In this document: positions 11,111 to 64,000 of the stretch, in pieces
Position numbering within the stretch: the first letter of the stretch is position 1
How the letters are laid out: every line of letters begins with the position of its first letter
Origin: Aureisphaera galaxeae
GTDB taxonomy: Bacteria > Bacteroidota > Bacteroidia > Flavobacteriales > Flavobacteriaceae
Assembly (NCBI RefSeq): GCF_028561275.1
Contig: NZ_JAQQTF010000002.1
Span: 340,812-404,811 of the forward strand
Direction: 5' to 3'
DNA: 64,000 nucleotides
Position numbers and translations under genes: made by a program
Notes under the pieces: model-generated
What the model saw: the letters and a program-made list of their open reading frames with translations, nothing else
Database searches by the model: none
What the model was told of the DNA's origin: nothing

Positions 11111-13486
11111 ATGAAAAACATCCTAATTGCATTCATCCTTTTGGCTTCCTCTCAAGCCTTTGCACAGAGCAAATACAGTATTAGGGGAACCGTAGAAGAC
11201 AAGAAAAATGGGGAAACCGTTATTGGAGCGACCGTGTACTTGGAGGGCACCAATATTGGCGCCATGACCAACGAATACGGTTTTTTCTCCCTTACGGCTC
11301 CCGAAGGAACCTATCAATTGGTGATCTCCTATCTGGGTTACGCAGAGACCCGTACCGAAGTGATCCTGAATTCGAACCAAACCCTCAATTTTGAAATCAG
11401 TGAGTCCCGAACTGCTTTGGAAGAAGTGGTAATTACTGCAGAGGAATCGGAACGGATCAACATCCGGGAACCACAGATGGGAGTCACCAAACTAAAAGCC
11501 GAAACCATAAAACAAATGCCAGCGGTTTTGGGAGAGGTAGATCTTATTAAATCCATACAGATGCTCCCGGGAGTTACCCAGAATGGAGAGGGATCAGCAG
11601 GATTTAATGTACGCGGAGGAGCGGCAGATCAGAATTTAGTGTTATTGGATGAGGCCATTATTTACAATACCTCCCATTTTTTCGGATTCTTCTCCGTATT
11701 CAATCCAGATGCCATCAAAGACATTAAGCTCTACAAGGGAGATATGCCTTCCAAATTTGGGGGAAGGGTGTCTTCGGTATTAGATGTACGACAAAAAGAT
11801 GGGAACAGTAAAAACTTTGGAATGACTGGGGGAATTGGTGTTATTTCCAGTCGACTTACAGCCGAAGGGCCTTTATTCAGTAAAAAGGGATCCTTTTTGG
11901 TAGCGGGAAGATCCTCATATGCACATTTGTTCACTCCGGCCATTGAAGAGGTGAAGGACGACAAAATTTCTTTCTACGATCTCAACCTAAAAGCCAATTA
12001 TGAGATCAATGACAACAACCGTGTGTACCTTTCAGGATACTTTGGAAGGGACATCTTCAATATTTCGAATTTTATAGAAAACAACTACGGTAATTTTTCT
12101 GGAAATCTACGTTGGAATCACGTGTTCAACGATAAATTGTTTTCCAACCTTTCCCTTATCTACAGTAAATACGATTACCAAGTTGTTTTGGATTTCGTAA
12201 AGTTGGATTGGATTGCCGACATCCAGAATCAGCATCTTAAATACGACTTTGGGTATTATGCCAGCGACAAGCTGAAATTGGATTTTGGGGTAAGCGGTAT
12301 TTATTATCGCCTGAATCCCGGCGAAGTACGACCCACTTCCGACGATTCTCCCATCAATTATTTGAAGTTGGATCAAAAAAGAGCTCTGGAAACGGGCGCT
12401 TATATAAGTGCTGAGCATAAGCTAACCGATAAACTTACAGCGCGCTACGGATTGCGATACAGTGCATTTTCTAGAATGGGAGGGCAAAATATTGCCAATT
12501 ATGTGGACGGTCGTCCGGTAGTGTACAATGAGAACCTTGGAATTTATGAAGAAGGCGAAATCGTAGACGAAACCTTTTATGAGAAAAGCGAAAGCATCAA
12601 GAACTTCGGGAACCTGGAACCGCGTTTGGGATTGGCCTATCAATTGAATAACAATGCTTCCGTTAAGGCCAGTTATACCCGTTCTGCCCAGTATCTGCAT
12701 CTATTGTCCAATACCTCTTCGGTTACGCCTTTGGATGTTTGGACCCCTAGTGGACCCTATGCCGATCCCCAATTGTCCAATCAATATTCGGTAGGGTATT
12801 ACCGAAAATTCAATGACAATACGTTCTCTTTGGAAGTAGAAGCCTATTACAAGAACGTAGAGAACAGAATTGATTATGTAGACGGTTCGGATCTTATAGG
12901 AACCAATACGATTGAGACCGAAATTTTAAGCGGAGAAGCCCGTGCATATGGACTTGAAGTGTTGCTTCGGAAGAACAAAGGAAAGTTCACAGGATGGCTG
13001 GCTTACACCCTTTCCAAATCAGAACAAAGAACCCCTGGAGGAGATGCCGGAGGTCCCGGGATTAATGATGGAAAATGGTACAATACCCCATTCGATAGAA
13101 CGCATGACTTTTCCTTAACGGGGTCGTATAAGTTGAGCGATAAATGGACCTTCAGTACCAATCTGGTTTTTCAAACAGGACGTCCGGTGACCTACCCAAA
13201 TGGACAATACGAATATGAGGATTTGTCCATAGCCAGTTATTCCTTGAGAAATGAAGATCGATTGCCAGCCTATCATCGTTTGGACCTTTCGGCCATTTAT
13301 CGTCCAAATAGTAAGAAGGATCGTCGTTGGCAAGGAGAATGGGTATTTGGTATTTACAATGTGTACAACAGAAGAAATGCCGCGACGATCTCCTTCAACC
13401 AAAACACAGAAACCGGGCAGAACGAATCTACCCGATTGTCCATCTTCGGAATCATACCTTCCATCACCTACAACTTCAAATTCTAA
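11111..13486 (+). CDS. TonB-dependent receptor (CarboxypepD_reg-like domain + plug + beta-barrel)
   Basis: Signal peptide. Carboxypeptidase-regulatory-like N-domain (YSIRGTVEDKKNGETVIGATV). Plug (DEAIIYNTSHFFGF). C-terminal barrel ending in aromatic F. Confidence 0.8.
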   Translation: MKNILIAFILLASSQAFAQSKYSIRGTVEDKKNGETVIGATVYLEGTNIGAMTNEYGFFSLTAPEGTYQLVISYLGYAETRTEVILNSNQTLNFEISESRTALEEVVITAEESERINIREPQMGVTKLKAETIKQMPAVLGEVDLIKSIQMLPGVTQNGEGSAGFNVRGGAADQNLVLLDEAIIYNTSHFFGFFSVFNPDAIKDIKLYKGDMPSKFGGRVSSVLDVRQKDGNSKNFGMTGGIGVISSRLTAEGPLFSKKGSFLVAGRSSYAHLFTPAIEEVKDDKISFYDLNLKANYEINDNNRVYLSGYFGRDIFNISNFIENNYGNFSGNLRWNHVFNDKLFSNLSLIYSKYDYQVVLDFVKLDWIADIQNQHLKYDFGYYASDKLKLDFGVSGIYYRLNPGEVRPTSDDSPINYLKLDQKRALETGAYISAEHKLTDKLTARYGLRYSAFSRMGGQNIANYVDGRPVVYNENLGIYEEGEIVDETFYEKSESIKNFGNLEPRLGLAYQLNNNASVKASYTRSAQYLHLLSNTSSVTPLDVWTPSGPYADPQLSNQYSVGYYRKFNDNTFSLEVEAYYKNVENRIDYVDGSDLIGTNTIETEILSGEARAYGLEVLLRKNKGKFTGWLAYTLSKSEQRTPGGDAGGPGINDGKWYNTPFDRTHDFSLTGSYKLSDKWTFSTNLVFQTGRPVTYPNGQYEYEDLSIASYSLRNEDRLPAYHRLDLSAIYRPNSKKDRRWQGEWVFGIYNVYNRRNAATISFNQNTETGQNESTRLSIFGIIPSITYNFKF

Positions 13487-50529: not shown

Positions 50530-51246
50530 ATGTATGCAATTGTAGAGATAGCAGGGCAGCAATTCAAAGTTGCGAAAGACCAAAAAGTCTACGTAAACCG
50601 TTTGACCACAGAAGAAGGAAAAAAAGTCGCTTTCGACAATGTACTTCTTATTGGTGACGGAGATAAGGTGACTATTGGCGCCCCGGCTATAGACGGAGCT
50701 CAAGTTGGAGCGAAAGTCGTGAAGCACCTAAAAGGTGATAAAGTTATCGTTTTCAAAAAGAAAAGAAGAAAGGGATACCGTGTAAAGAACGGTCACAGAC
50801 AAGCTCTTTCTGAAATCGTAATTGAAAGCATTGTTGCTTCTGGAGCTAAGAAAGCTGCTCCTGCAAAGGCTAAAAAGGCAGCTCCTGCTAAGAAAGAGGC
50901 AGCTCCAAAGGCCGAAGCTAAAAAAGAAACCAAAGCAGCCCCTAAAGCAGAAGCTCCTAAGGCTGCACCAGCTAAAAAGGCAGCTCCAAAGAAAGCTGCA
51001 AAAGGAGATGATCTTAAGAAAATCGAAGGGATTGGACCTAAGATTGCTGAGACTTTGACTGCTGCTGGTATTGCCACGTTTGCGGATTTGGCAAAAGCTA
51101 AACCTGCAGATATCGCTGAAATCATCGCTGGAGTTCGTGGAAACCACGTTCCAGATACTTGGCCACAACAAGCCCAATTGGCTGCTGATGGCAAGTGGGA
51201 TGAACTAAAAGAATTGCAAGATAAATTAGACGGTGGGAAGGCGTAA
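50530..51246 (+). CDS. rplU: 50S ribosomal protein L21 with long C-terminal extension (Ala/Lys/Pro-rich linker + HhH-like domain)
   Basis: N-terminal about 105 aa is canonical bL21 (MYAIVEIAGQQFKV...). This is followed by AKKAAPAKAKKAAPAKKEAAPKAEAKK low-complexity and a C-terminal helix-hairpin-helix-like module (LKKIEGIGPKIAETLTAAGIATFADLAKAKPADIAEI). 238 aa total. Confidence 0.85.
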   Translation: MYAIVEIAGQQFKVAKDQKVYVNRLTTEEGKKVAFDNVLLIGDGDKVTIGAPAIDGAQVGAKVVKHLKGDKVIVFKKKRRKGYRVKNGHRQALSEIVIESIVASGAKKAAPAKAKKAAPAKKEAAPKAEAKKETKAAPKAEAPKAAPAKKAAPKKAAKGDDLKKIEGIGPKIAETLTAAGIATFADLAKAKPADIAEIIAGVRGNHVPDTWPQQAQLAADGKWDELKELQDKLDGGKA

Positions 51247-51699: not shown

Positions 51700-52638
51700 A
51701 TGAAATCATCCATTGTTTTAATTTTTCTGTTGTGTTTATTCTCTCAGAAACTCAATGCCCAAGACGAGTATGTTTTTGAAGGGGTCATTAAACTGAGTGG
51801 GTTATCATTGTATACCTATAGCATTCATTTTTATGAAGAAGAGGGAGTCATTGAGGGATATTCCGTTACCGATCAGGATGGAGCATATGAAACCAAATCT
51901 TTGGTGTCAGGTTCTATAGATCACAAAACTAAAATAATTGAATTTTACGAAAGTGAAATCCTTACTGCTAAGTCCTCAAAGTCTTTGGATGGTTTCTGTT
52001 ACATACATTTTAACGGAACCTTGAAAGAAGGAAAGGAGCAACAGGAAATTTGGGGGAAATTTAATAGTAAGTACAAAACCGGGGATCTATGTATAAATGG
52101 TGTCATTTCAATGACCAATAAAGGGCCTGTTTTTAAAAAGAAGGAACGTCCCAAAGTGGAATTGGCTGGAGGAATAAAGCAAGAAGATAGAATTGAACAA
52201 GAAACTAGAATTGAACAAGAAAGTAGAATTAAACGAGAAAGCAGAATTAAAATTAAGGAAAAGAGTAAAAGCTTAGTGAGTAAGGCCAATAACATACGTA
52301 TCAATACCGTGGCTACCAATGAAGTACTTCATGTATTTTCCAAGGATGATGAACTTTCAATGTTAATATACGATGAAGAAGTTTCTGATAACGATAGGAT
52401 CAATCTTTCCATAAACGACATTCCTATTTTAGTAGACTATGGGGTTACCAAACGCTCCAGAAAAGTTACCATACCAATGGACCGAGATCGGGTGGAGGTA
52501 AAGGTTACTGCTTTGACCAATGGAATCATTGGTAAAAACACCATTCGTTTCGATATTACAGATAGCAACAATCTTACCAGAACCGTTACCAATCTTGAGG
52601 TAGGCGAGACTGCAACTTTGGTTTTCCTTAAGCAGTAA
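51700..52638 (+). CDS. Hypothetical secreted protein with internal charged heptad repeats
   Basis: Signal peptide (MKSSIVLIFLLCLFSQKLNAQ). Central RIEQETRIEQESRIKRESRIKIKEK repeat. No recognisable domain. Confidence 0.4.
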   Translation: MKSSIVLIFLLCLFSQKLNAQDEYVFEGVIKLSGLSLYTYSIHFYEEEGVIEGYSVTDQDGAYETKSLVSGSIDHKTKIIEFYESEILTAKSSKSLDGFCYIHFNGTLKEGKEQQEIWGKFNSKYKTGDLCINGVISMTNKGPVFKKKERPKVELAGGIKQEDRIEQETRIEQESRIKRESRIKIKEKSKSLVSKANNIRINTVATNEVLHVFSKDDELSMLIYDEEVSDNDRINLSINDIPILVDYGVTKRSRKVTIPMDRDRVEVKVTALTNGIIGKNTIRFDITDSNNLTRTVTNLEVGETATLVFLKQ

Positions 52639-55819: not shown

Positions 55820-56896
55820 ATGGAAATGAAAAAGAAAGGCTTACAAAAAATAGCGGTGCGGTTTCTTATCGTAAACGTCGTTTACTTTCTCATTAAGTTA
55901 ACCATAGACCATGGAGGGAAAGCTCCCAATCTCTTTAGTGGACAGGCCGTGTTTTATTATTCTTCGGCCATAGTCCTTTTCTTTAGTACGTGGGAGATCA
56001 ACGATCGGCTCATTAAAAAGTACCAGGAAAGGAGAGGGGCTTTATCACCCAAGGATTATACGGCTATTATAGGTTGGACCATGGCCATTATGACTCCTCT
56101 GGCGGCTTTATATTATTACATCGGGATTTTTCATTTAAATCACATTTGTCATTTGCATGATGGAGATCCGTGGTTGCAATGGCGCATCGATTTCTTTAGG
56201 GCTATGTTGTTGAGCGTTGCGGTAATACTCTTCAATGTTTTTTATCATGCCTTGTATCAGAAGCGCGAATTGGAGAATAAAATGACCGCCTTAAAGAAGG
56301 AAGTGGTCACTTCGAAATACAAATCTCTGAAGAGTCAGATAAGTCCACATTTCCTTTTTAATAGTCTGAATACACTCACGAGTTTGATGTACGAAGATCG
56401 GGATTTGGCATCCGATTTCGTTTCCCGTTTGGCTTCCTGTTATCGATACATTCTGGACAATAGGGAAGAGGATTTGGTTTCTTTGGAGAAGGAACTCGGA
56501 TTTCTCGATTCGTTTATGTTTATGATGAATGTACGGCACGAAGGAGCCCTTACCATAAAGACAAATATAAAAGTGTCTCCAGTGGAATATCTCATCCCAA
56601 CCCTTACCTTGCAGATGTTGGTGGAAAATGCGATGAAGCATAATTTCTATTCCAAAGAGAAACCTATGGAAATTTTGGTAGAAACCCGAGGAAAGCAGCG
56701 TTTGGTGGTTCAGAATACCTTTAGAAAGCGGGCGCTTGAAGAGGAGTCGACCGGATTGGGAATTCAGAATGTAAAGAACCGATATGCTTTTTATACCTCC
56801 CAGGAAGTGTTGGTAGAAGAAAAAGAAGATGTATTCGTGGTAGAAATTCCTTTGTTGCCTAGGGATATAAAGGACATTAAAATGATCGTTTCCTAA
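55820..56896 (+). CDS. LytS/YehU-family sensor histidine kinase (membrane, His_kinase PF06580 type)
   Basis: Several N-terminal TM helices. Conserved SPHFLFNSLNTL histidine motif. C-terminal HATPase-like region (ENAMKHN). Confidence 0.8.
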   Translation: MEMKKKGLQKIAVRFLIVNVVYFLIKLTIDHGGKAPNLFSGQAVFYYSSAIVLFFSTWEINDRLIKKYQERRGALSPKDYTAIIGWTMAIMTPLAALYYYIGIFHLNHICHLHDGDPWLQWRIDFFRAMLLSVAVILFNVFYHALYQKRELENKMTALKKEVVTSKYKSLKSQISPHFLFNSLNTLTSLMYEDRDLASDFVSRLASCYRYILDNREEDLVSLEKELGFLDSFMFMMNVRHEGALTIKTNIKVSPVEYLIPTLTLQMLVENAMKHNFYSKEKPMEILVETRGKQRLVVQNTFRKRALEEESTGLGIQNVKNRYAFYTSQEVLVEEKEDVFVVEIPLLPRDIKDIKMIVS

Positions 56897-57648
56897 TGAA
56901 AGCTGTGATTGTAGAGGACGAAGCCATTGCTTCCCGCCGTTTGGCCAACCTTATTGGCGAATTGGCCCCAGAAATGGAAATTGTGGGGCAGGTGACCTCG
57001 GTGGAGAATGGCAGTCGTTGGTTTGCTGAAAACAGCATGCCCGATTTGATCTTTTTGGACATTCAGTTGAATGACGGTTATGGCTTTGATATTTTGGATC
57101 GATTGGAAGATCATCCACCAGTCATTTTTACCACGGCTTATAATGAATATGCTATCCGCGGATTTAAGTACAACGGCATCGATTATTTGCTCAAACCGAT
57201 TGACAAGAATGACTTGCGAGATGCCTTGTATAAATTTCGGAAGAACAGTGTAGCAGTTCCTTCGGAAACGGACAAGATTGCCGAGTTGAAAAAGTTATTC
57301 TCGAAGGAGTTCAAGAAACGGTTTATGGTGAAGGTGGGGAATCATTTCAATACCTTTCAAGTAGAAGACATTGCCTACTTTAAGAGCCATGACGGTCTTA
57401 TTTTCCTGCACTCACATTCTGGACAGGAGTTCCCGATTGAATATTCTATAGATCAATTGGAGGATATTTTAGATCCGGTACAGTTTTTTAGGATCAACCG
57501 TAAGTTCATGGTTTCCGTACAAGCAGTACAAGAGATCCACACCTATTTCAACAGTCGATTGCTATTAAAACTACAACCCAAGGAAGAAGAGCAGGTCATT
57601 GTTTCCCGGGAACGCACCAGTAATTTTAAACGGTGGTTGGATTTGTGA
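56896..57648 (+). CDS. LytTR-family response regulator
   Basis: Receiver domain with phospho-acceptor context (DLIFLDIQLNDG). C-terminal LytTR DNA-binding domain. Start overlaps the kinase stop. Confidence 0.85.
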   Translation: MKAVIVEDEAIASRRLANLIGELAPEMEIVGQVTSVENGSRWFAENSMPDLIFLDIQLNDGYGFDILDRLEDHPPVIFTTAYNEYAIRGFKYNGIDYLLKPIDKNDLRDALYKFRKNSVAVPSETDKIAELKKLFSKEFKKRFMVKVGNHFNTFQVEDIAYFKSHDGLIFLHSHSGQEFPIEYSIDQLEDILDPVQFFRINRKFMVSVQAVQEIHTYFNSRLLLKLQPKEEEQVIVSRERTSNFKRWLDL

Positions 57649-57669
57649 TGTCCTATTATTTGCAGAAAT

Positions 57670-58200
57670 TCACTGCTCCATAAATACGATGCACATTGAT
57701 GCTATTTCCGCAACTTCATTGTCGTCGGAAAGTGAATGGCCTTTAACAGCTTCGTCGATACAATTGCTTAATTCAATGGCTTTACTTTTGATAAAATCAA
57801 GTGAATGCCCTTTGTATATATGAGCTAAAAAGTCACCGCAAGTTGCTAATTTGTTTCTTTTGGCTGAGATCTTCCATTCCGAAATTTTAGACTTATGAAG
57901 AGATCCACCAACATACCATTCTTGACTATTGTCAGAGACATGTTTTTCTGGACCATCCAAACAAGAAATCATTATAATGGGAATGCAGAATAGAAATACT
58001 AGAACGAAGAGGCATCCTTTCCCTGTTGATTTATTAAAGTTCTTTCTATAGGTGAGCCCAGGAATTCCGGTTCTAATGGAAAATCCTTTTGTGCTTACCG
58101 AACCTTTTTTGGAACGGTAACTAGGATACATTCCTTTTTTGCTAAAGTTGAGTCCGAATCCTTTGCCAAGATTGACTCGTTTTCTGTATCTAAATCCCAT
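57670..58200 (-). CDS. DUF4236-domain membrane protein
   Basis: N-terminus MGFRYRKRVNLGKGFGLNFSKKG matches the DUF4236 signature. It is followed by a basic repeat region, one TM helix and a Cys/His-containing C-terminal domain. Confidence 0.45.
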   Translation of the reverse strand: MGFRYRKRVNLGKGFGLNFSKKGMYPSYRSKKGSVSTKGFSIRTGIPGLTYRKNFNKSTGKGCLFVLVFLFCIPIIMISCLDGPEKHVSDNSQEWYVGGSLHKSKISEWKISAKRNKLATCGDFLAHIYKGHSLDFIKSKAIELSNCIDEAVKGHSLSDDNEVAEIASMCIVFMEQ

Positions 58201-58202
58201 GA

Positions 58203-59111
58203 CTAATGTTTAATGATGAAGTCGGAGATTATTTTTTTCATGTTCGAAGGTAACTCGGCATTTCTCACTTCATAATAATTAACTTTCATTTCCCTGAACC
58301 ATTTCTGCCAGTATTCCTTTATCAGGTCATCTTCATAAACATTTCCTTCTATAGGATTAATTCCTAAAACAAGGACATCTAGATTTGATAGGTCGTTTTC
58401 GGCTACTAAAAAACCATAATTTTTCTGGTCCATTTTTGCTTTCCAATTGATGGAGTTGAGGTTTTCGCTTTTTACATATTGAGGGGTTAAGTAAGTGGTC
58501 AAGTGGTCTTTTTCTCTAAGATTGTTTTTATGGAACATATAACCATCAGTTAGAATTATTAAAATATTCCGTGAATCATTCTCAATACAAAAATCCCTGA
58601 CATTATTTTTGAAAAATCCCCAAGTATCAGATCCTATATAGTCTCTGTCTTTAATTGAAAGCTCATATATTTCTTTTGATTTTGACACATATGCTGGTGT
58701 GATCTCATCCAGTAAATCCATAGATGCATTAGCTCTTGTTATATGGAACTTTAGGCTTTTTGAAATTTTATTGATTTTTAGATTCTTTGGCTCTGGATCG
58801 AAATACAGGGCTATTCTGTCGTCCATTTTTCTGACTTTCTTGACTTTAAGGTGATTGACAAACGTTTCAGCGATTAATTCTATATAGCCTAAGTCCCTCT
58901 TATAATATTCCATAGTTTTATTGTGAAACTTTATGGTGTCAATTCTATCCGATAGGTCTAAGAGAATGCTAATGTTTAAATTGATATCTCGGGTTTTATG
59001 GATAGTAGACTCTTGACCTATTATTGGTTCCTCTTTTTTTACATCTTTGTTGCAAGAGAGTAAAGTGGTAAGCAATAGATATAACGAGATTTGATTGATC
59101 GAACTTTTCAT
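58203..59111 (-). CDS. Hypothetical lipoprotein (302 aa)
   Basis: Lipoprotein signal (LLLTTLLSCNKD). AT-rich codon usage. No recognisable domain. Confidence 0.4.
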   Translation of the reverse strand: MKSSINQISLYLLLTTLLSCNKDVKKEEPIIGQESTIHKTRDINLNISILLDLSDRIDTIKFHNKTMEYYKRDLGYIELIAETFVNHLKVKKVRKMDDRIALYFDPEPKNLKINKISKSLKFHITRANASMDLLDEITPAYVSKSKEIYELSIKDRDYIGSDTWGFFKNNVRDFCIENDSRNILIILTDGYMFHKNNLREKDHLTTYLTPQYVKSENLNSINWKAKMDQKNYGFLVAENDLSNLDVLVLGINPIEGNVYEDDLIKEYWQKWFREMKVNYYEVRNAELPSNMKKIISDFIIKH

Positions 59112-59121
59112 AACGTTAGCA

Positions 59122-60378
59122 TTAAGTGAAGATCAGATTCTGGAAATCCATTTCTGTTAGGTTAAGCTCCTGAAGGTGTTTCTTTGCGACTTCTTCACAT
59201 TTGTTTCGGAGCTCGTTTTTTTCCTTAGCTGGCAAAGCTAGTTCTGCATTGATTGCTTGATACCATCCCTCTCTATATTGATAATGATAATGTAAGTATT
59301 CTTTGACGGGAAAAATGAATCCGTCAATCTTGGCTTGTAGTTCGGCTATTTTCCCTTGTATGGAAGAGATTTCTTGCTTTATTATGCTGATTTTACTCAA
59401 AAGATCATTTTTGTGTATGTTTAAATTGTGTATTTCTTCTTTTTTAGATCTAATAAAGGCTTTTATTTTATCCACATTTTCATGTTCCTTCATGATAAAG
59501 TCAAATACTAATCCCCATATTATATAGACCACGAATCCTGCGAAGATAATTCCCCAAAAGTTTACACTTTGGATCGCATTCCAAGGGGTAAATTGTTGAC
59601 CAATTATTGCATCGAATAAGAAAATTTTCTTTTCTATGAGGTAGGCTAGGATTACATCAAAAAGGAAGGTGAGTATAAAAAGAGCAGCTAATTTCATGAA
59701 GACTTTCCACCCTTTCTTTTTTTGAAACATGTGAATTAAATACCCAAGTCCCATAAAGACGAAGGGTATTGTTCCAACAAATATTGCTTCCAGCCAACCA
59801 TCTGAAATCGCTTTTCCTAGAGCGTTAGAATCAAAGATTGCCGCCGTTAAGCTATCGGATTCAAAATTTTTGAAAAAAGCCGAGTAAGAGGCGGAAATGT
59901 AAAAGACAAAGAGGTAGATCGTTATCGGAAGAAGAATTGAAATTCCAATGTAAAATTGGGCTTTCGGCCGTTTGTCTGCATCAATACCATATCGTTCTGG
60001 ATTTTGCTTAACATCTATCATTTCAAACTGTCTATCTTTTATTGTGGATGAGATGGTTTTTAATTGATCTTCTGTAATCGCAATTACGGTTTCCCTCTTC
60101 TTAAGTTCCGTTTTACATTTTTCCTGTTCCTCTTTATAAGGCTGCTTTAGCCGTAGTTGTTCATTGAGTTGTTTGCGACATTGATCTTCAAAACTGTTAT
60201 AAAGGTTTTTAAGTCCCACCCCGAACGTGACAGGCTCACCCGAAGCTTTGGTAGAAGCCCCATAACCACTTTGAAAATAAGTGATTCGAATCTGCTCTTT
60301 GGATTCTGAAGATGTACTTTTAGACTCTTTTTCTATACCGTTCTTTTTTAAAGCAAAGAGGTTTTTGATGTTTTCCAT
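59122..60378 (-). CDS. Hypothetical 4-TM membrane protein with N- and C-terminal coiled-coil regions
   Basis: About 150-aa coiled-coil N-terminus, four TM helices and about 120-aa coiled-coil C-terminus (ISSIQGKIAELQAKIDGF). 418 aa. Confidence 0.4.
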   Translation of the reverse strand: MENIKNLFALKKNGIEKESKSTSSESKEQIRITYFQSGYGASTKASGEPVTFGVGLKNLYNSFEDQCRKQLNEQLRLKQPYKEEQEKCKTELKKRETVIAITEDQLKTISSTIKDRQFEMIDVKQNPERYGIDADKRPKAQFYIGISILLPITIYLFVFYISASYSAFFKNFESDSLTAAIFDSNALGKAISDGWLEAIFVGTIPFVFMGLGYLIHMFQKKKGWKVFMKLAALFILTFLFDVILAYLIEKKIFLFDAIIGQQFTPWNAIQSVNFWGIIFAGFVVYIIWGLVFDFIMKEHENVDKIKAFIRSKKEEIHNLNIHKNDLLSKISIIKQEISSIQGKIAELQAKIDGFIFPVKEYLHYHYQYREGWYQAINAELALPAKEKNELRNKCEEVAKKHLQELNLTEMDFQNLIFT

Positions 60379-60382
60379 GGTA

Positions 60383-60787
60383 CTATGCCTTTAGATTGTT
60401 TAGAATGTCATCTTTACTAACCTTCTTATTGGCGCATTCCAATAAGTATTCAGTTATGGGAATTATTTTATCATCCTCAAAGTCAAATTTTTTACAGTAC
60501 TTTTTTAAAGTATTGTATTCATCTTCGGTGACTTTTCCATCAGCCCAAATCATTAAGGCTAAATCATATAAATATTCTACCCGACCTTCTAGGGTCTCAG
60601 GAATAGTCGAATAGGAATCAGGACTTAAAAGCAAGCCGTTTAGTTGGACTTTTGAAATACCTCGGTCCTCAGCAAACTTGTATAGCATTCGTAACTCAAG
60701 AACATCAAAGTCCTCATCGGAAAGAGCAATTTGATATAGTCTTAGAAAGTGACTTTTTAATTCTGTTGAAATAATAATTTTTTCCAT
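60383..60787 (-). CDS. TerB-like (tellurite-resistance TerB / DjlA-N-like) domain protein
   Basis: 134 aa. Paired helical motif with conserved acidic positions (ALSDEDFDVLELRMLYKFAEDRG...LALMIWADGKVTEDEYNTLKKY) resembles the TerB fold. Confidence 0.45.
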   Translation of the reverse strand: MEKIIISTELKSHFLRLYQIALSDEDFDVLELRMLYKFAEDRGISKVQLNGLLLSPDSYSTIPETLEGRVEYLYDLALMIWADGKVTEDEYNTLKKYCKKFDFEDDKIIPITEYLLECANKKVSKDDILNNLKA

Positions 60788-60796
60788 AATAGATGA

Positions 60797-61168
60797 TTAA
60801 ACCATTCGATCTCGGTCCAGTATTTTTTCATTTCTTATTGTCGCTTTTTGACTCTGGTCTGTCCTTTTTTTGGGTGCAAAAACCTGAAGCAGAAACAAGA
60901 TGCCTACAACAATGTCTATGGGAATCCATTTCGATTTTTGGTACAGGTATACCGGGTAAATGGGATTGAAAACGATTGCTACGACCGAAAATAGAGCCAC
61001 CCAATACCATGTTTTCACCCGACTTAAAATCACCCAAAGGGAGCCTATGAAAACCACAATCCGCAAGAAGGTGTAGTATTCTATGGGTAGATGTAGTATT
61101 CCCATGAATAATAGGATGGCACAGATTCCTGAAATAATTGTATTTAATTGGCTGGGAGAGTTTGACAT
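60797..61168 (-). CDS. Hypothetical small 3-TM membrane protein
   Basis: 123 aa with three hydrophobic helices. No domain. Confidence 0.35.
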   Translation of the reverse strand: MSNSPSQLNTIISGICAILLFMGILHLPIEYYTFLRIVVFIGSLWVILSRVKTWYWVALFSVVAIVFNPIYPVYLYQKSKWIPIDIVVGILFLLQVFAPKKRTDQSQKATIRNEKILDRDRMV

Positions 61169-61186
61169 TTTTTTGGGAATAATAAA

Positions 61187-61555
61187 TTATCCTAATGTTG
61201 ATCCATTCTGTAAAATCACTTTTTCAGGATTCCAGATTAGCTTAATATCCTTTAAGTCTTTGTCTCTAAGAGCCCTATCTTCGGATCTGTAAGGATTATA
61301 TTCAGTGGTAGCATTCCAGGTTACTTTTCCTCCTGCCTTAATAGGTTGATCATAAACAAAACTCATTGATTGAATTTTTTCATCAAAGATGTTATTGAAG
61401 ACGACTTCTCCTTTAATCGCCCTTATACCATTGTCAGATTTATTATGGATTAGGAATGTATACGTTATAAATTCTTCATAATCGTATTCTGTATATCCCT
61501 TTTTTGAGCAATGAACTTCTATTAATTCTTTCAGATTATTATTGTTTAATTCCAT
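61187..61555 (-). CDS. Hypothetical protein (122 aa), first gene of the AT-rich operon
   Basis: Soluble, no recognisable motif. Separated by 19 nt from the next gene. Confidence 0.35.
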   Translation of the reverse strand: MELNNNNLKELIEVHCSKKGYTEYDYEEFITYTFLIHNKSDNGIRAIKGEVVFNNIFDEKIQSMSFVYDQPIKAGGKVTWNATTEYNPYRSEDRALRDKDLKDIKLIWNPEKVILQNGSTLG

Positions 61556-61697
61556 GATTTAATGTTTATAAGTTGGCCTTTTACAAGGCTTCCCTGATTT
61601 TGCGTGAATTCAGCTAGTTTCCAGTAAATCGAATTTTTATTGTGTAATGGAAAATGTCCTGATTCAAAAATTCTTAGCTAGATTTAAGCAATCATGA

Positions 61698-62186
61698 TTA
61701 TTGCTTGATTACATATTTTTTAAAGACATACCCTGAGAGGGTTTTGTTCAAGAGCTTTACCCGAATCCAGGATCCGGAAGCCTCAACCAGTTCCAGTTTT
61801 TCATTTTTTGCTAACTTTTTCAAGACGTCGTATTTCGTGCCGGGACCTTTTCTTAGGTTCAAGGTCTCCGCAGAAACCACAAGGATATCGCCCGTACGAA
61901 ACGTTGGTTTCTTAGTATTAAAAGAAGAGGGTCGGGAAACACTGGAAGATCTAGGGCTGCAAACGCCACAAGAGCCTCCATTCTTTGCACAGTGCCTACA
62001 TCCCGTGCAATTTTTACACGCGGTACAGTAAGCGGAACCCGTACATCCTCTTTCGGTTGTGCAACAGGAAGCAATGGCATCGGTGTTTTGCACGAGTGCT
62101 GCGACGTAGATGAAAAAAAGGAAAGGCAGAATTAAAAGAGTTTTCATAATCTTATGTATTGTCCTCCTCTTCAGCAATTGGAGCAT
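61698..62186 (-). CDS. Secreted Cys-rich protein with C-terminal bacterial SH3 (SH3b) domain
   Basis: Signal peptide. 11 Cys within CCTTERGCTGSAYCTACKNCTGCRHCAKNGGSCGVC. C-terminal SH3b-like region (GDILVVSAETLNLRKGPGTKYDVLKKLAKNEKLELVEASGSWIRV). Confidence 0.5.
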   Translation of the reverse strand: MLQLLKRRTIHKIMKTLLILPFLFFIYVAALVQNTDAIASCCTTERGCTGSAYCTACKNCTGCRHCAKNGGSCGVCSPRSSSVSRPSSFNTKKPTFRTGDILVVSAETLNLRKGPGTKYDVLKKLAKNEKLELVEASGSWIRVKLLNKTLSGYVFKKYVIKQ

Positions 62187-62337
62187 TCTTTCTTACCGAT
62201 TCAATTCCCTTTTCGCAGGCTTGTTTAGAGTTGTACATTTCACTAGTAGCAATGATTTCTCCGTTTCCTGCCTTTAGATTGAAGAAAAAGTACTTGTCGT
62301 TTTTACTTTTTTGGATTGTAAATTTTGGTTTTCCCAT
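62152..62337 (-). CDS. YegP/DUF1508-family small protein
   Basis: 61 aa. MGKPKFTIQKSKNDKYFFFNLKAGNGEIIATSEMY matches the DUF1508 repeat signature. Confidence 0.55.
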   Translation of the reverse strand: MGKPKFTIQKSKNDKYFFFNLKAGNGEIIATSEMYNSKQACEKGIESVRKNAPIAEEEDNT

Positions 62338-62349
62338 GTTGTGTACATT

Positions 62350-62631
62350 TTAATTAATGAATCGTTTTGCTATGTCTTTTTCTGGTATTACTTGATTGTT
62401 TTTCAATAAAACTTGAGTTTCCTGTGTAATCGGATTCTTAAAAGTTTCGAAACCAGGCCGGCAGTTTTTGTATCGAAAAACCAGAGCTTTTAATCCACTT
62501 ATTAATCCGTTTTCTCTAGTCGTCTTGTATACATGTTGCGAACAGGACATTCTGAAAATACACCTACCTCTTTTTGAAGCAGGAATTATATGCCAATACC
62601 ACTTAATAGCGAATAGTAATAGATGTTTCAT
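62350..62631 (-). CDS. yidD: Membrane protein insertion efficiency factor YidD
   Basis: Conserved CxFxxSCSxY core (GRCIFRMSCSQHVYKTTRENG). Confidence 0.65.
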   Translation of the reverse strand: MKHLLLFAIKWYWHIIPASKRGRCIFRMSCSQHVYKTTRENGLISGLKALVFRYKNCRPGFETFKNPITQETQVLLKNNQVIPEKDIAKRFIN

Positions 62632-62858
62632 TTTCTAAATACCGCCATTTGTCTGTGAGTAGTAAACCCAGGCTGAGCACCAATTCCAAAACATCCATTA
62701 ATGGGATTTACAAATGAGGTTACGCTTTCCAGCCGGACATATTCCCAACCGAGGTTTGTTTGATTTTGAATCAAATCCTCTAACTGTTCTGCAACCTGCT
62801 TTTGTGTGTTCTTGGCCCTGTCAATTGAAGCGACAAAGGGTACTACCTTGTATTCCAT
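62628..62858 (-). CDS. DUF4177-domain protein
   Basis: 76 aa. MEYKVV...GWEYV pattern typical of DUF4177. Confidence 0.5.
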   Translation of the reverse strand: MEYKVVPFVASIDRAKNTQKQVAEQLEDLIQNQTNLGWEYVRLESVTSFVNPINGCFGIGAQPGFTTHRQMAVFRK

Positions 62859-62903
62859 AACTTAAAAGTTTAGAAGGAGGCCTTAATTAAAGCCTCCTTG
62901 ATT

Positions 62904-63074
62904 CTAGGCGTATGCGATTAATTTCCAATCGGTTGAATTTCCATTGTGTGGAGGAAATGTTTCGCCCTCAGAGAGTGGAATGGTATCTATGGGAGGTGAT
63001 TGCGCCTCCCAAACTCCTGATTCTGGACATTTTTGTCCTGTGTGTCTAATTGTTCCCAATGGTGTTCTAGCCAT
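62904..63074 (-). CDS. Small hypothetical protein (55 aa), not in the ORF track
   Basis: Minus-strand ORF MARTPLGTIRHTGQKCPESGVWEAQSPPIDTIPLSEGETFPPHNGNSTDWKLIAYA in otherwise non-coding spacer. Coding status unverified. Confidence 0.3.
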   Translation of the reverse strand: MARTPLGTIRHTGQKCPESGVWEAQSPPIDTIPLSEGETFPPHNGNSTDWKLIAYA

Positions 63075-63168
63075 AGTTTTAAGTTTTAGATTTATACTCC
63101 AAACCTAAAACCCTTAGCAGTCAAATCCTTGCGGGAATCCGCGAAGCAAAAAAAAATGTGAAAAGAAA

Positions 63169-63837
63169 TTAGAGAAACCCCAATTTGGTGGCCTTATGTA
63201 CCAATTGGGCAGGAGTAGAAGCATCAAAATGGTCTTTTAACCTACTAATACGGTCTTCTACGGTACGCATACTATTGGGAGAAATATCTTCTTGTTTCAG
63301 ATGTTCAGGAATATCTATTTGCTTGATACCTCTGGCAAGCAATCGCATTAAATGAATTTCGTATTCGCCTATTTGTAATACGTGTTTTTGTTCCAGAAAG
63401 GATCGCGTAACCGGGCAAATATAGGTCTGTCCCTTGTGTACAAGATGTATGGCTTTTGTAAGTTCTTTAAGACCATTAAGCCCCTTGCAAACATGAGCCT
63501 CAACTCTCAGGTCGTTCATTAGCGACTTGATGATACCTTGCTTTCCATTTCCCGTAAAAACAATAATCTTTAATTCCGGTTGTATTTCCCGTACACGTTT
63601 TATGAGTTCTTCCCCAGATGGAATCTCATCTTTTCCGAAAGAGGAGGTGAATTCCAAATCGGTAATGAGTAATTCGAAGGGTGCTTCCTCGAGCAATGCC
63701 TTTTTAATTTGCCAGTAAGTGTCTATACAAAAAGAGGTTTGTGAAATGGTCGGAATATTCAGTTCCTTAAGGGCTGTCATCATCCCTGTTTTGCTATCTT
63801 CATAATCTTCGGCAACAATTACTTTGGTAAAGGACAT
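63169..63837 (-). CDS. LuxR/NarL-family response regulator (receiver + HTH)
   Basis: Start taken at MSFTKVIVAEDYED (63837), 10 nt after the stop of the upstream kinase fragment. Phospho-acceptor Asp context LLITDLEF. C-terminal LuxR-type HTH (ISPNSMRTVEDRISRLKDHF). Confidence 0.7.
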   Translation of the reverse strand: MSFTKVIVAEDYEDSKTGMMTALKELNIPTISQTSFCIDTYWQIKKALLEEAPFELLITDLEFTSSFGKDEIPSGEELIKRVREIQPELKIIVFTGNGKQGIIKSLMNDLRVEAHVCKGLNGLKELTKAIHLVHKGQTYICPVTRSFLEQKHVLQIGEYEIHLMRLLARGIKQIDIPEHLKQEDISPNSMRTVEDRISRLKDHFDASTPAQLVHKATKLGFL

Positions 63838-63847
63838 GGTTTTCAAT

Positions 63848-64000
63848 TTAAATAGGGATTTCAATTTTTAGGGTGAATCCCTGTTGTAAATCCGATCCTA
63901 AATTAAGTCTGCCGCCCAGTTCTTTCACGCGGGTTTCCGCACTGCGGAGTTTGGGCTGAGCGACTTCCGTTCCTTTTCCGTTGTCGGAATAATTAATGAT
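63848..64000 (-). CDS. Sensor histidine kinase, C-terminal fragment (gene continues beyond window end)
   Basis: Minus-strand reading ends ...NYSDNGKGTEVAQPKLRSAETRVKELGGRLNLGSDLQQGFTLKIEIPI*. This is the HATPase_c G2-box region of a NarX/LiaS-like kinase lying upstream of a LuxR-type regulator. Confidence 0.5.
   Translation of the reverse strand: MINYSDNGKGTEVAQPKLRSAETRVKELGGRLNLGSDLQQGFTLKIEIPI

Follow-up and report, generated by a model that had tools for sequence, protein, structure and literature searches.

A conserved trio of genes for a TerB-like protein, a coiled-coil membrane protein and a vWA lipoprotein in an AT-rich block of Aureisphaera galaxeae

An AT-rich block of six genes raises the question of its origin

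Is a strikingly AT-rich run of envelope-associated genes in a flavobacterial genome a foreign island or an inherited operon? We asked this of a six-gene block on the minus strand, at 57670 to 61555, of a stretch of 64,000 nucleotides from Aureisphaera galaxeae (contig NZ_JAQQTF010000002.1, positions 340,812 to 404,811; called the window below). A first-pass annotation, made from the sequence alone, had proposed a horizontally acquired accessory module of the envelope-stress or defence type. The analysis reported here points the other way. We consider it probable that the block is a vertically inherited operon, found family-wide in Bacteroidota, and that three of its genes, g3, g4 and g5 (here the trio), encode a single envelope-spanning complex.

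The open reading frame (ORF) calls reproduced the annotated limits of the block, with six ORFs as follows:

61187-61555, minus strand: g1, 122 amino acids, a soluble protein without a family
60797-61168, minus strand: g2, 123 amino acids, a small DUF6804 protein with several transmembrane (TM) helices
60383-60787, minus strand: g3, 134 amino acids, a predicted cytoplasmic TerB-like protein, first gene of the conserved trio
59122-60378, minus strand: g4, 418 amino acids, a predicted inner-membrane 4-TM protein with N- and C-terminal coiled coils, centre of the trio
58203-59111, minus strand: g5, 302 amino acids, a vWA-fold lipoprotein, third gene of the trio
57670-58200, minus strand: g6, 176 amino acids, a membrane protein with one TM helix, a probable DUF4236 domain at the N terminus and an extra C-terminal domain

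Read off the sequence from g1 through to g6, the intergenic gaps are 18, 9, 4, 10 and 2 nucleotides. The tight six-gene operon first described is thus borne out, and the spacing given for it was close, the measured range being 2 to 18 rather than 2 to 19 nucleotides. That the products are membrane or envelope associated and lack a described function was also supported. The domain calls were mostly right, but the vWA fold of g5 had been missed.

The trio keeps its order across Flavobacteriaceae and beyond

We searched all window proteins by tblastn against 82 loci, consisting of 80 Flavobacteriaceae loci (one genome per species) and two contig look-ups, from Polaribacter (L001) and Flavobacterium litorale (L002). 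The order TerB-g4-vWA was present on one strand in 82/82 loci, which represent at least 24 genera of flavobacteria; the figure measures co-occurrence and not prevalence in the family, because the loci had been selected by the presence of g4. The genes are also closely packed: the gap from the TerB stop to the g4 start was 0 to 5 nucleotides in all 78 loci where it could be measured, and that from the g4 stop to the vWA start had a median of 4 nucleotides. Across Flavobacteriaceae genera g4 is 56 to 74% identical, which makes it better conserved over the 82 loci than the neighbouring YidD (45 to 59%) and response regulator (32 to 46%) genes. The presence of the trio in at least 24 genera argues for an old, vertically inherited operon.

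The closest identities of the window trio are to Maribacter and Aurantibacter (TerB, 72 to 73%; g4, 73%). In Aurantibacter crassamenti (L004) the genes run in the order TPR-kinase-sized ORF, response regulator, DUF4177, YidD, DUF6804, TerB, g4, vWA and DUF4236, which is the order of the window minus the g1, SH3 and DUF1508 genes. Thus not only the trio but everything from g2 to g6, together with the upstream YidD, DUF4177 and response regulator genes, is collinear with Aurantibacter, contrary to what an accessory island would lead one to expect.

The arrangement holds at greater distances as well. Seven distant relatives of g4, 24 to 34% identical to it, kept the trio in 7/7 cases, two of them being Crocinitomicaceae and Bacteroidales metagenome-assembled genomes (MAGs). 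In all seven a TerB-like gene of 116 to 142 amino acids lies directly upstream of the g4 homologue, and a gene of 243 to 319 amino acids lies directly downstream (in L083 this copy ends at the end of the contig). The downstream gene matches the vWA-lipoprotein profile with E values of 4e-13 to 9e-81 and keeps the motifs D-L-S-[DN]-[RH] and TDGY. What had been taken for a foreign island becomes a defined three-gene unit, adjacent and coupled from Flavobacterium to Polaribacter, Crocinitomicaceae and Bacteroidales.

One contig falls outside this taxonomic range by its label. L024 (JALZUO010000084.1, 3.6 kb), binned in an 'Oligoflexales' MAG, carries the trio with a g4 that is 69% identical to that of the window; it is probably mis-binned flavobacterial DNA rather than a case of transfer across phyla.

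Low GC content appears to be a trait of the operon

The block had been described as low in GC and rich in Lys, Asn and Ile, and the anomaly is real and far from chance. As reference we used the 54 other window ORFs of at least 120 amino acids. The GC content of the six-gene block is 0.347, and its genes range from 0.31 to 0.40, compared with 0.434 ± 0.024 for the reference ORFs. At third codon positions (GC3), five of the genes have values of 0.27 to 0.35 against 0.446 ± 0.042 elsewhere in the window, or 2 to 4 standard deviations (SD) low. The exception is g2, which at 0.435 has a GC3 like that of the genome at large, and the lowest value in the block is that of g1 (0.268). The combined fraction of Lys, Asn and Ile is 0.22 to 0.30 in the block and 0.19 ± 0.034 in the other window ORFs. 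Because GC3 is low too, the anomaly is not solely an amino-acid effect.

We found that this composition is not peculiar to the window. Of the 81 other loci, 73 have a trio with more AT than the distant flanks, and the mean difference in GC is -2.6 points. Across the 81 loci, regression of trio GC on flank GC gave a slope of 0.55 with an r of 0.73. A slope of only 0.55 means that the deficit of the trio grows in higher-GC genomes, and it reaches -8.9 points in L014 and -9.1 points in L023. For a genome at 0.43 the regression predicts a trio GC of 0.36; the window trio, at 0.342, has a residual of -0.020 where the residual SD is 0.016 (-1.25 SD). A family-wide AT shift that scales with the GC content of the host makes the AT-richness look like a trait of the operon and not a sign of recent import. 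An operon can therefore inherit its local AT-richness, third codon positions included, and such a composition need not be evidence of transfer.

Two further genes of the window are AT-shifted, at 51700 to 52638 on the plus strand (GC 0.361, GC3 0.348) and at 50530 to 51246 on the plus strand (GC3 0.314).

Transfer does not explain the trio well

These results bear on two accounts that invoke transfer. According to the one put forward in the first-pass annotation, the block is a horizontally acquired accessory island encoding anti-phage defence or stress resistance. Low GC and GC3 in five of the six genes fit it, as do the sporadic and nearly ORFan g1, the variable flanks in some genomes (CRISPR-Cas and IS1 in L002, an HSDR_N gene in L001) and weak matches in PADLOC, where g3 hit PDC-S48 (19.9 bits, E 8e-5) and the coiled coil of g4 hit LmuB (18.9 bits, E 1.7e-4). 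However, the same order and position of the trio in all 82 loci, the recurrence of the response regulator in 68 of them, the conservation of g4 above that of YidD and the response regulator, and an AT-richness that is family-wide all speak against an island. Neither do the expected hallmarks appear: we found no tRNA in the 64-kb window, no mobility-gene family in a Pfam scan of the 15 proteins encoded at 57670 to 63864, and no repeats that would bound an island. The PADLOC matches are partial and low-scoring and fall in low-complexity or coiled-coil regions, and g1, g2, g5 and g6 had none. We regard this account as very unlikely. Because the trio turns out to consist of syntenic core genes, the island reading fails for g3 to g5, for which it is largely refuted.

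The other account accepts a conserved operon but supposes that the Aureisphaera copy was replaced by homologous recombination from a lower-GC flavobacterium, so that its AT-richness would be partly a signature of transfer. It draws on the contrast between the trio GC and the genome-like 0.434, on GC3 values of 0.30 to 0.35 that resemble typical marine flavobacteria of 32 to 35% GC, on the position of the window below the regression line, and on Maribacter and Aurantibacter being the closest by identity. Yet the residual is just 1.25 SD, the GC3 of g2, itself a member of the block, is normal, and the deficits of L014 and L023, both higher-GC genomes, are at least as large; replacement would have to have happened several times over to account for them, and an intrinsic bias is the simpler explanation. 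A replacement is therefore unlikely.

Two further candidates were tried and rejected. A defence system was dismissed after PADLOC-DB v2, run on seven proteins, gave nothing significant. A phage origin was dismissed after a PHROGs search in which g6 matched phrog_23065 and, at its N terminus, families of the DUF4236 type, the remaining matches being coiled-coil noise. We also found no Rfam element.

The central protein g4 belongs to a family in none of the libraries searched

Many orthologues of g4 are named "ABC transporter permease" in NCBI and UniRef. This name is misleading, and the others in the databases (BAR-domain, gas vesicle, Zn-ribbon and Asp23) are inconsistent with it and with one another. 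We found no Pfam, NCBIfam, PHROG or PADLOC family match for g4 beyond coiled-coil noise, and no consistent Pfam family in a scan of 65 members of the g4 family. DUF4407 (PF14362), whose members resemble g4 in being membrane proteins with TM helices and long coiled coils, was matched weakly by two of the 65 (best E 1.9e-4) and not by the other 63, the window protein among them; these matches are probably coiled-coil noise. A Foldseek search against PDB returned generic coiled-coil matches alone (E >= 0.02), and so did PDB sequence profile searches with two g4 alignments. The family itself is well populated. A profile search of 1.84 billion 50%-cluster representatives found 719 sequences at E <= 1e-3 and 257 at E <= 1e-30. 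The best 120 matches are full-length and 63 to 78% identical, and the named ones among them span many flavobacterial genera.

The AlphaFold2 model of g4 is all-helical, with a mean predicted local distance difference test score (pLDDT) of 69.8. A helix over residues 49 to 125 is followed by TM helices at about 139 to 164, 195 to 220, 224 to 256 and 272 to 296, and the last of these runs on as a single helix to residue 352. The loop between TM2 and TM3 reads QKKKGWK and that between TM1 and TM2 is acidic; by the positive-inside rule, both termini and the coiled coils would be cytoplasmic.

We assessed conservation in an alignment of 129 diverse representatives, 24 to 63% identical to g4 with a median of 29%. 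Four residues, Y160, S162, F208 and D241, are conserved at 100%, and F159 also ranked among the invariant positions. G212, G281, W288 and G289 are conserved at 99% or more, the C-terminal pair G371-W372 at 99% and H216 at 92%. D241 was again invariant in a second alignment (n = 65). Conservation is confined to the TM core plus G371-W372; the coiled coils are kept only as coiled coils.

The flanking genes encode a vWA lipoprotein and a TerB-like protein

A fold search showed that g5 has the alpha/beta Rossmann-like fold of a vWA domain, and its annotation is corrected here to a vWA lipoprotein. The domain is visible by fold search only: Pfam VWA profiles gave no match to g5 at E <= 1, and a PDB sequence-profile search with the g5 alignment gave nothing. 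The N terminus carries a lipobox (...LLTTLLSC20) whose Cys20 is kept in at least 90% of family sequences. A lipobox-like motif is present in 104/120 homologues, and in the distant orthologue of L089 it is replaced by a signal of the signal-peptidase-I type. Invariant in the family are D52-L-S54-D55-R56 after β1 and T188-D189-G190 after β4. These residues form what appears from the sequence to be a non-canonical site resembling a metal ion-dependent adhesion site (MIDAS), with DxSDR...TDG in place of the canonical DxSxS...T...D.

NCBI annotates the gene with a start farther downstream, as POV27_01560 (236 amino acids, 78% coverage), and that product has neither signal peptide nor lipobox. Homologues conserve the longer form, the ORF of 302 amino acids that includes Cys20; the NCBI start is truncated.

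The first gene of the trio, g3, matches the Pfam TerB family (PF05099) marginally, with 24.9 bits against a cut-off of 24.4. The assignment is firmer for the family as a whole: 27/27 aligned orthologues matched Pfam TerB at E <= 0.01, the best at 2.2e-9. The g3 alignment also matches the TerB-like PDB entries 2ou3 and 2h5n, weakly. In the 27 sequences, distant ones included, D24/E31 and D83/E90 are invariant within two 'aD(G)xxxxxE' half-motifs, which are of the type proposed for metal binding in TerB domains. The protein has no signal peptide and is predicted to be cytoplasmic.

A proposed envelope-spanning complex

How might the three products work together? In the reading that we favour, g3, g4 and g5, products of translationally coupled genes, would form one complex that spans the envelope. 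The vWA subunit g5 would bind a partner or ligand in the periplasm or outer membrane. In the inner membrane, g4 would bind or conduct an ion, either a proton or a divalent cation, and pass its state along the coiled-coil stalks; the invariant D241, predicted to be buried, and the near-invariant H216 would sit in its 4-TM core. On the cytoplasmic side, g3 would dock on the stalks as a metal sensor or adaptor. For a TerB-like domain at the cytoplasmic face of the membrane there is a precedent in DjlA, where its role is undefined (bioRxiv 10.1101/2024.08.29.610257). The trio would then serve as a housekeeping device for the sensing or homeostasis of the envelope or of divalent cations. We hold this specific ion-coupled sensing scheme tentatively, giving it roughly half the weight that we give to an inherited operon encoding a complex. 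More doubtful still is a fuller version, in which the trio would be an undescribed Bacteroidota machine and g4 a new ion-conducting family whose D241 and H216 couple ions to a vWA adaptor and a TerB metal sensor, with a housekeeping role, for example in outer-membrane or cation homeostasis, possibly under TPR-kinase/response-regulator control.

Several points weigh against the reading of an inherited operon that encodes one complex, besides the selection of loci by g4 presence. The confidence of the g4 model is moderate, and the topology of the protein rests on the positive-inside rule. The second Ser of the MIDAS is replaced in g5 by an invariant Arg, which makes metal-dependent ligand binding uncertain. 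The residues after the lipid-bearing Cys also matter here (region of g5 residues 21 to 26): in the 104 g5 homologues K occurs at +2, E/D/N at +3 and D/E at +4, and the signal for surface export of Bacteroidetes lipoproteins is C-X-K-(D/E)2 (PMC5080379). By this likeness g5 might be displayed on the cell surface, and if so, no direct contact with an inner-membrane protein would be possible. Finally, the window has one of the larger GC3 deficits within the family, which gives some weight to a past homologous replacement from a lower-GC flavobacterium.

Other functions can be proposed for the trio. It might be a membrane-anchored adaptor of proteostasis, its TerB-like subunit recruiting chaperones of the Hsp70/DnaJ type to membrane clients as in DjlA. 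The domain is of the same type as that in DjlA, a co-chaperone of DnaK, the NCBIfam DjlA model matches g3 weakly (E 0.0056), and chaperone genes adjoin three of the seven distant trios (L085, L088 and L090). Such neighbours could be plain housekeeping context, however, and there is no J-domain or chaperone gene in the window or in the gene tables of L001 and L002, the other 80 loci having been mapped for homologues of window genes only. An adaptor of this kind would also leave the periplasmic vWA partner and the invariant intramembrane Asp unexplained, and we consider it quite unlikely. The existing names suggest instead that g4 is an ABC transporter permease or that the cluster is a tellurite-resistance operon of the Ter type, and they can point to the permease label on many g4 orthologues and to the Pfam TerB match of g3. 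Against them stand the lack of an ABC membrane domain or any other NCBIfam or Pfam family in g4 and 65 relatives, the absence of an adjacent ATPase or binding-protein gene in the window, L001 and L002, the inconsistency of the rival names, which read as guesses, and the absence of TerC, TerD, TerZ and TerA domains from every gene of the block. An explanation along these lines is hardly credible.

Relation to known systems

Ter clusters combine TerB with the vWA protein TerY. Both these clusters and the Bat (BatA/BatB) operon of Bacteroides thus have domains in common with the trio, namely TerB and vWA. The differences lie in the form of the vWA protein and in its company. TerY is cytoplasmic and the Bat proteins are TM-anchored, whereas the vWA protein of the trio is a secreted lipoprotein with DxSDR in place of DxSxS. 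The trio comes without the Ter and Bat partners (MoxR ATPase, the TPR proteins BatC/D/E, a PP2C phosphatase or kinase, TerC, TerD and TerZ), and it has at its centre a novel 4-TM coiled-coil protein. A Pfam scan of ten genes around the block found no TerC, TerD, TerZ, TerE or TerA, which places g3 outside a terZABCDE cluster, and none of these occurred in the gene tables of nine loci (L001, L002 and L083 to L090 except L087).

With TerB domains and DjlA, g3 shares more. Together with all 27 of its orthologues it matches TerB and keeps the two acidic D...E half-motifs, and it has a genetic link to an inner-membrane protein, comparable to the connection in DjlA between the TerB-like domain and the TM anchor. 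Unlike DjlA, g3 is a stand-alone protein of about 130 amino acids without a J-domain or TM helix.

The ion-driven motors and sensors of the envelope, MotAB, ExbBD, TolQR and GldLM of Bacteroidota, have a critical intramembrane acidic residue. The trio resembles them by analogy only: g4 is helical, has a predicted buried and invariant acidic residue and long helices that would be cytoplasmic, and is accompanied by a gene for a partner that would face the periplasm. It matches none of them in sequence or fold. Its chain joins an N-terminal coiled coil, four TM helices and a C-terminal coiled coil, and its partner is a vWA lipoprotein, not a subunit that binds peptidoglycan or spans the periplasm. 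The trio is thus a membrane-associated TerB/vWA module with a novel central subunit, of a family in no library that we searched.

In the literature we found no paper describing the trio operon, although an earlier mention in the Ter review literature is possible, and nothing that places a coiled-coil membrane protein in an operon with TerB and vWA. A search for TerB in Flavobacterium returned papers on the herbicide terbuthylazine and other unrelated papers alone. None was found on DUF6804, and the one found on DUF4236 is irrelevant. Flavobacteriaceae are major degraders of marine polysaccharides and include fish pathogens, and genetically tractable models exist among them. This importance, together with the available models, makes this conserved candidate for an envelope complex a reasonable target for functional genomics.

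The accessory genes g1, g2 and g6 vary between lineages

The remaining genes of the block are much less constant. The match of g2 to DUF6804 (PF20619) is clear, at 73 bits against a cut-off of 27 (E 2.3e-20), over profile positions 2 to 91 of 91. Among the 82 loci, DUF6804 occurs in five. It lies directly upstream of TerB in four of these (Maribacter, Aurantibacter, Jejudonia and Spongiimicrobium), and in L023 a weak match of 27% identity lies about 1 kb downstream of vWA. The distant locus L089 has DUF6804 downstream of the trio.

For g6, the match to Pfam DUF4236 (PF14020) covers the whole profile of 55 positions with 26.9 bits, the cut-off being 27. Seven PHROG families that match the same N terminus, and the 49 homologous neighbours of the trio described next, support the assignment; phrog_23065 matches residues 90 to 134 (E 1.5e-10). 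A DUF4236 gene is near the trio in 49/82 loci and is upstream of TerB in 48 of these 49. In 44 of the 48 upstream cases it encodes a protein of 65 to 88 amino acids, in which, as the printed sequences show, the DUF4236 domain is followed by a hydrophobic C-terminal stretch. Only in Aurantibacter (L004) does DUF4236 lie downstream of vWA, as it does in the window. DUF4236 (often) and DUF6804 (occasionally) are lineage-specific accessories, in the form of small membrane proteins.

Neither Pfam, NCBIfam nor PADLOC gave a match for g1. A search of 5.8 billion proteins returned the protein itself and one metagenome protein of 65% identity, and tblastn found matches in 2/82 loci, at differing positions. 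This gene is a sporadic add-on that probably stands outside the conserved system; with the lowest GC3 and a sporadic distribution, it is the sole credible recent addition to the block.

The neighbourhood and possible regulation of the operon

Upstream of the block, on the same strand, we identified the following genes:

63169-63864, minus strand: a divergent receiver-domain response regulator (Pfam Response_reg, E 8.6e-4)
62904-63074, minus strand: a YjzC-like ORF of 56 amino acids
62628-62858, minus strand: a DUF4177-like gene (Pfam DUF4177, E 0.0099)
62350-62631, minus strand: a YidD-like gene (Pfam YidD, E 4.5e-8)
61698-62337, minus strand: a gene for a Cys-rich secreted SH3_3-domain protein (162 amino acids, GC 0.44) and a DUF1508 gene (61 amino acids)

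The homologue of the response regulator, found in 68/82 loci, is upstream of the trio on the same strand in 65. L001 and L004 have an ORF of 640 to 646 amino acids ahead of it, and in L001 this ORF is a kinase with TPR and HATPase_c domains. The pair of YidD and DUF4177 is near the trio in 21/82 loci. The small SH3_3, DUF1508, YidD, DUF4177 and YjzC-like genes occupy a zone that separates the response regulator from the operon and whose content varies by genus. Within it, the SH3_3 gene overlaps the end of the DUF1508 gene by 35 nucleotides.

Scans for promoters and terminators gave results at chance level. A -7 box of the Bacteroidetes type (TAnnTTTG), TAGGTTTG, is located at 63100 to 63107 on the minus strand, 26 nucleotides upstream of the YjzC-like ORF, and is the sole minus-strand -7 box between the response regulator gene and g4. 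The stretch from 57500 to 64000 has just two more on this strand, one within the response regulator gene (63423) and one within g4 (59240). Neither g1 nor g3 has such a box directly upstream. Transcription may run over a long distance, from about 63.1 kb to 57.7 kb.

Regulators of the LytS/LytTR type or TPR-kinase/LytTR type stand beside the trio in three unrelated contexts:

55820-57648 of the window, plus strand: regulator genes beside the trio
4821-6021 of L031: regulator genes beside the trio
1300-4166 of L089: regulator genes beside the trio

In the window, these LytS/LytTR genes converge on g6, from which they are 21 nucleotides apart.

The chaperone genes beside three of the seven distant trios, which may be a functional hint or housekeeping context, are these:

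1-5261 of L085: HSP70, a kinase-AAA protein and a second TerB
4388-4957 of L088: a DnaJ protein
4314-6273 of L090: GroES/GroEL, directly upstream of the trio on the same strand

What follows the operon downstream seems to vary between genomes. In Flavobacterium litorale (L002) the trio has a Cas9-Cas1-Cas2 locus on one side and IS1 fragments on the other (1 to 2692 and 12459 to 13114), and in Polaribacter (L001) an HSDR_N-domain gene follows the trio.

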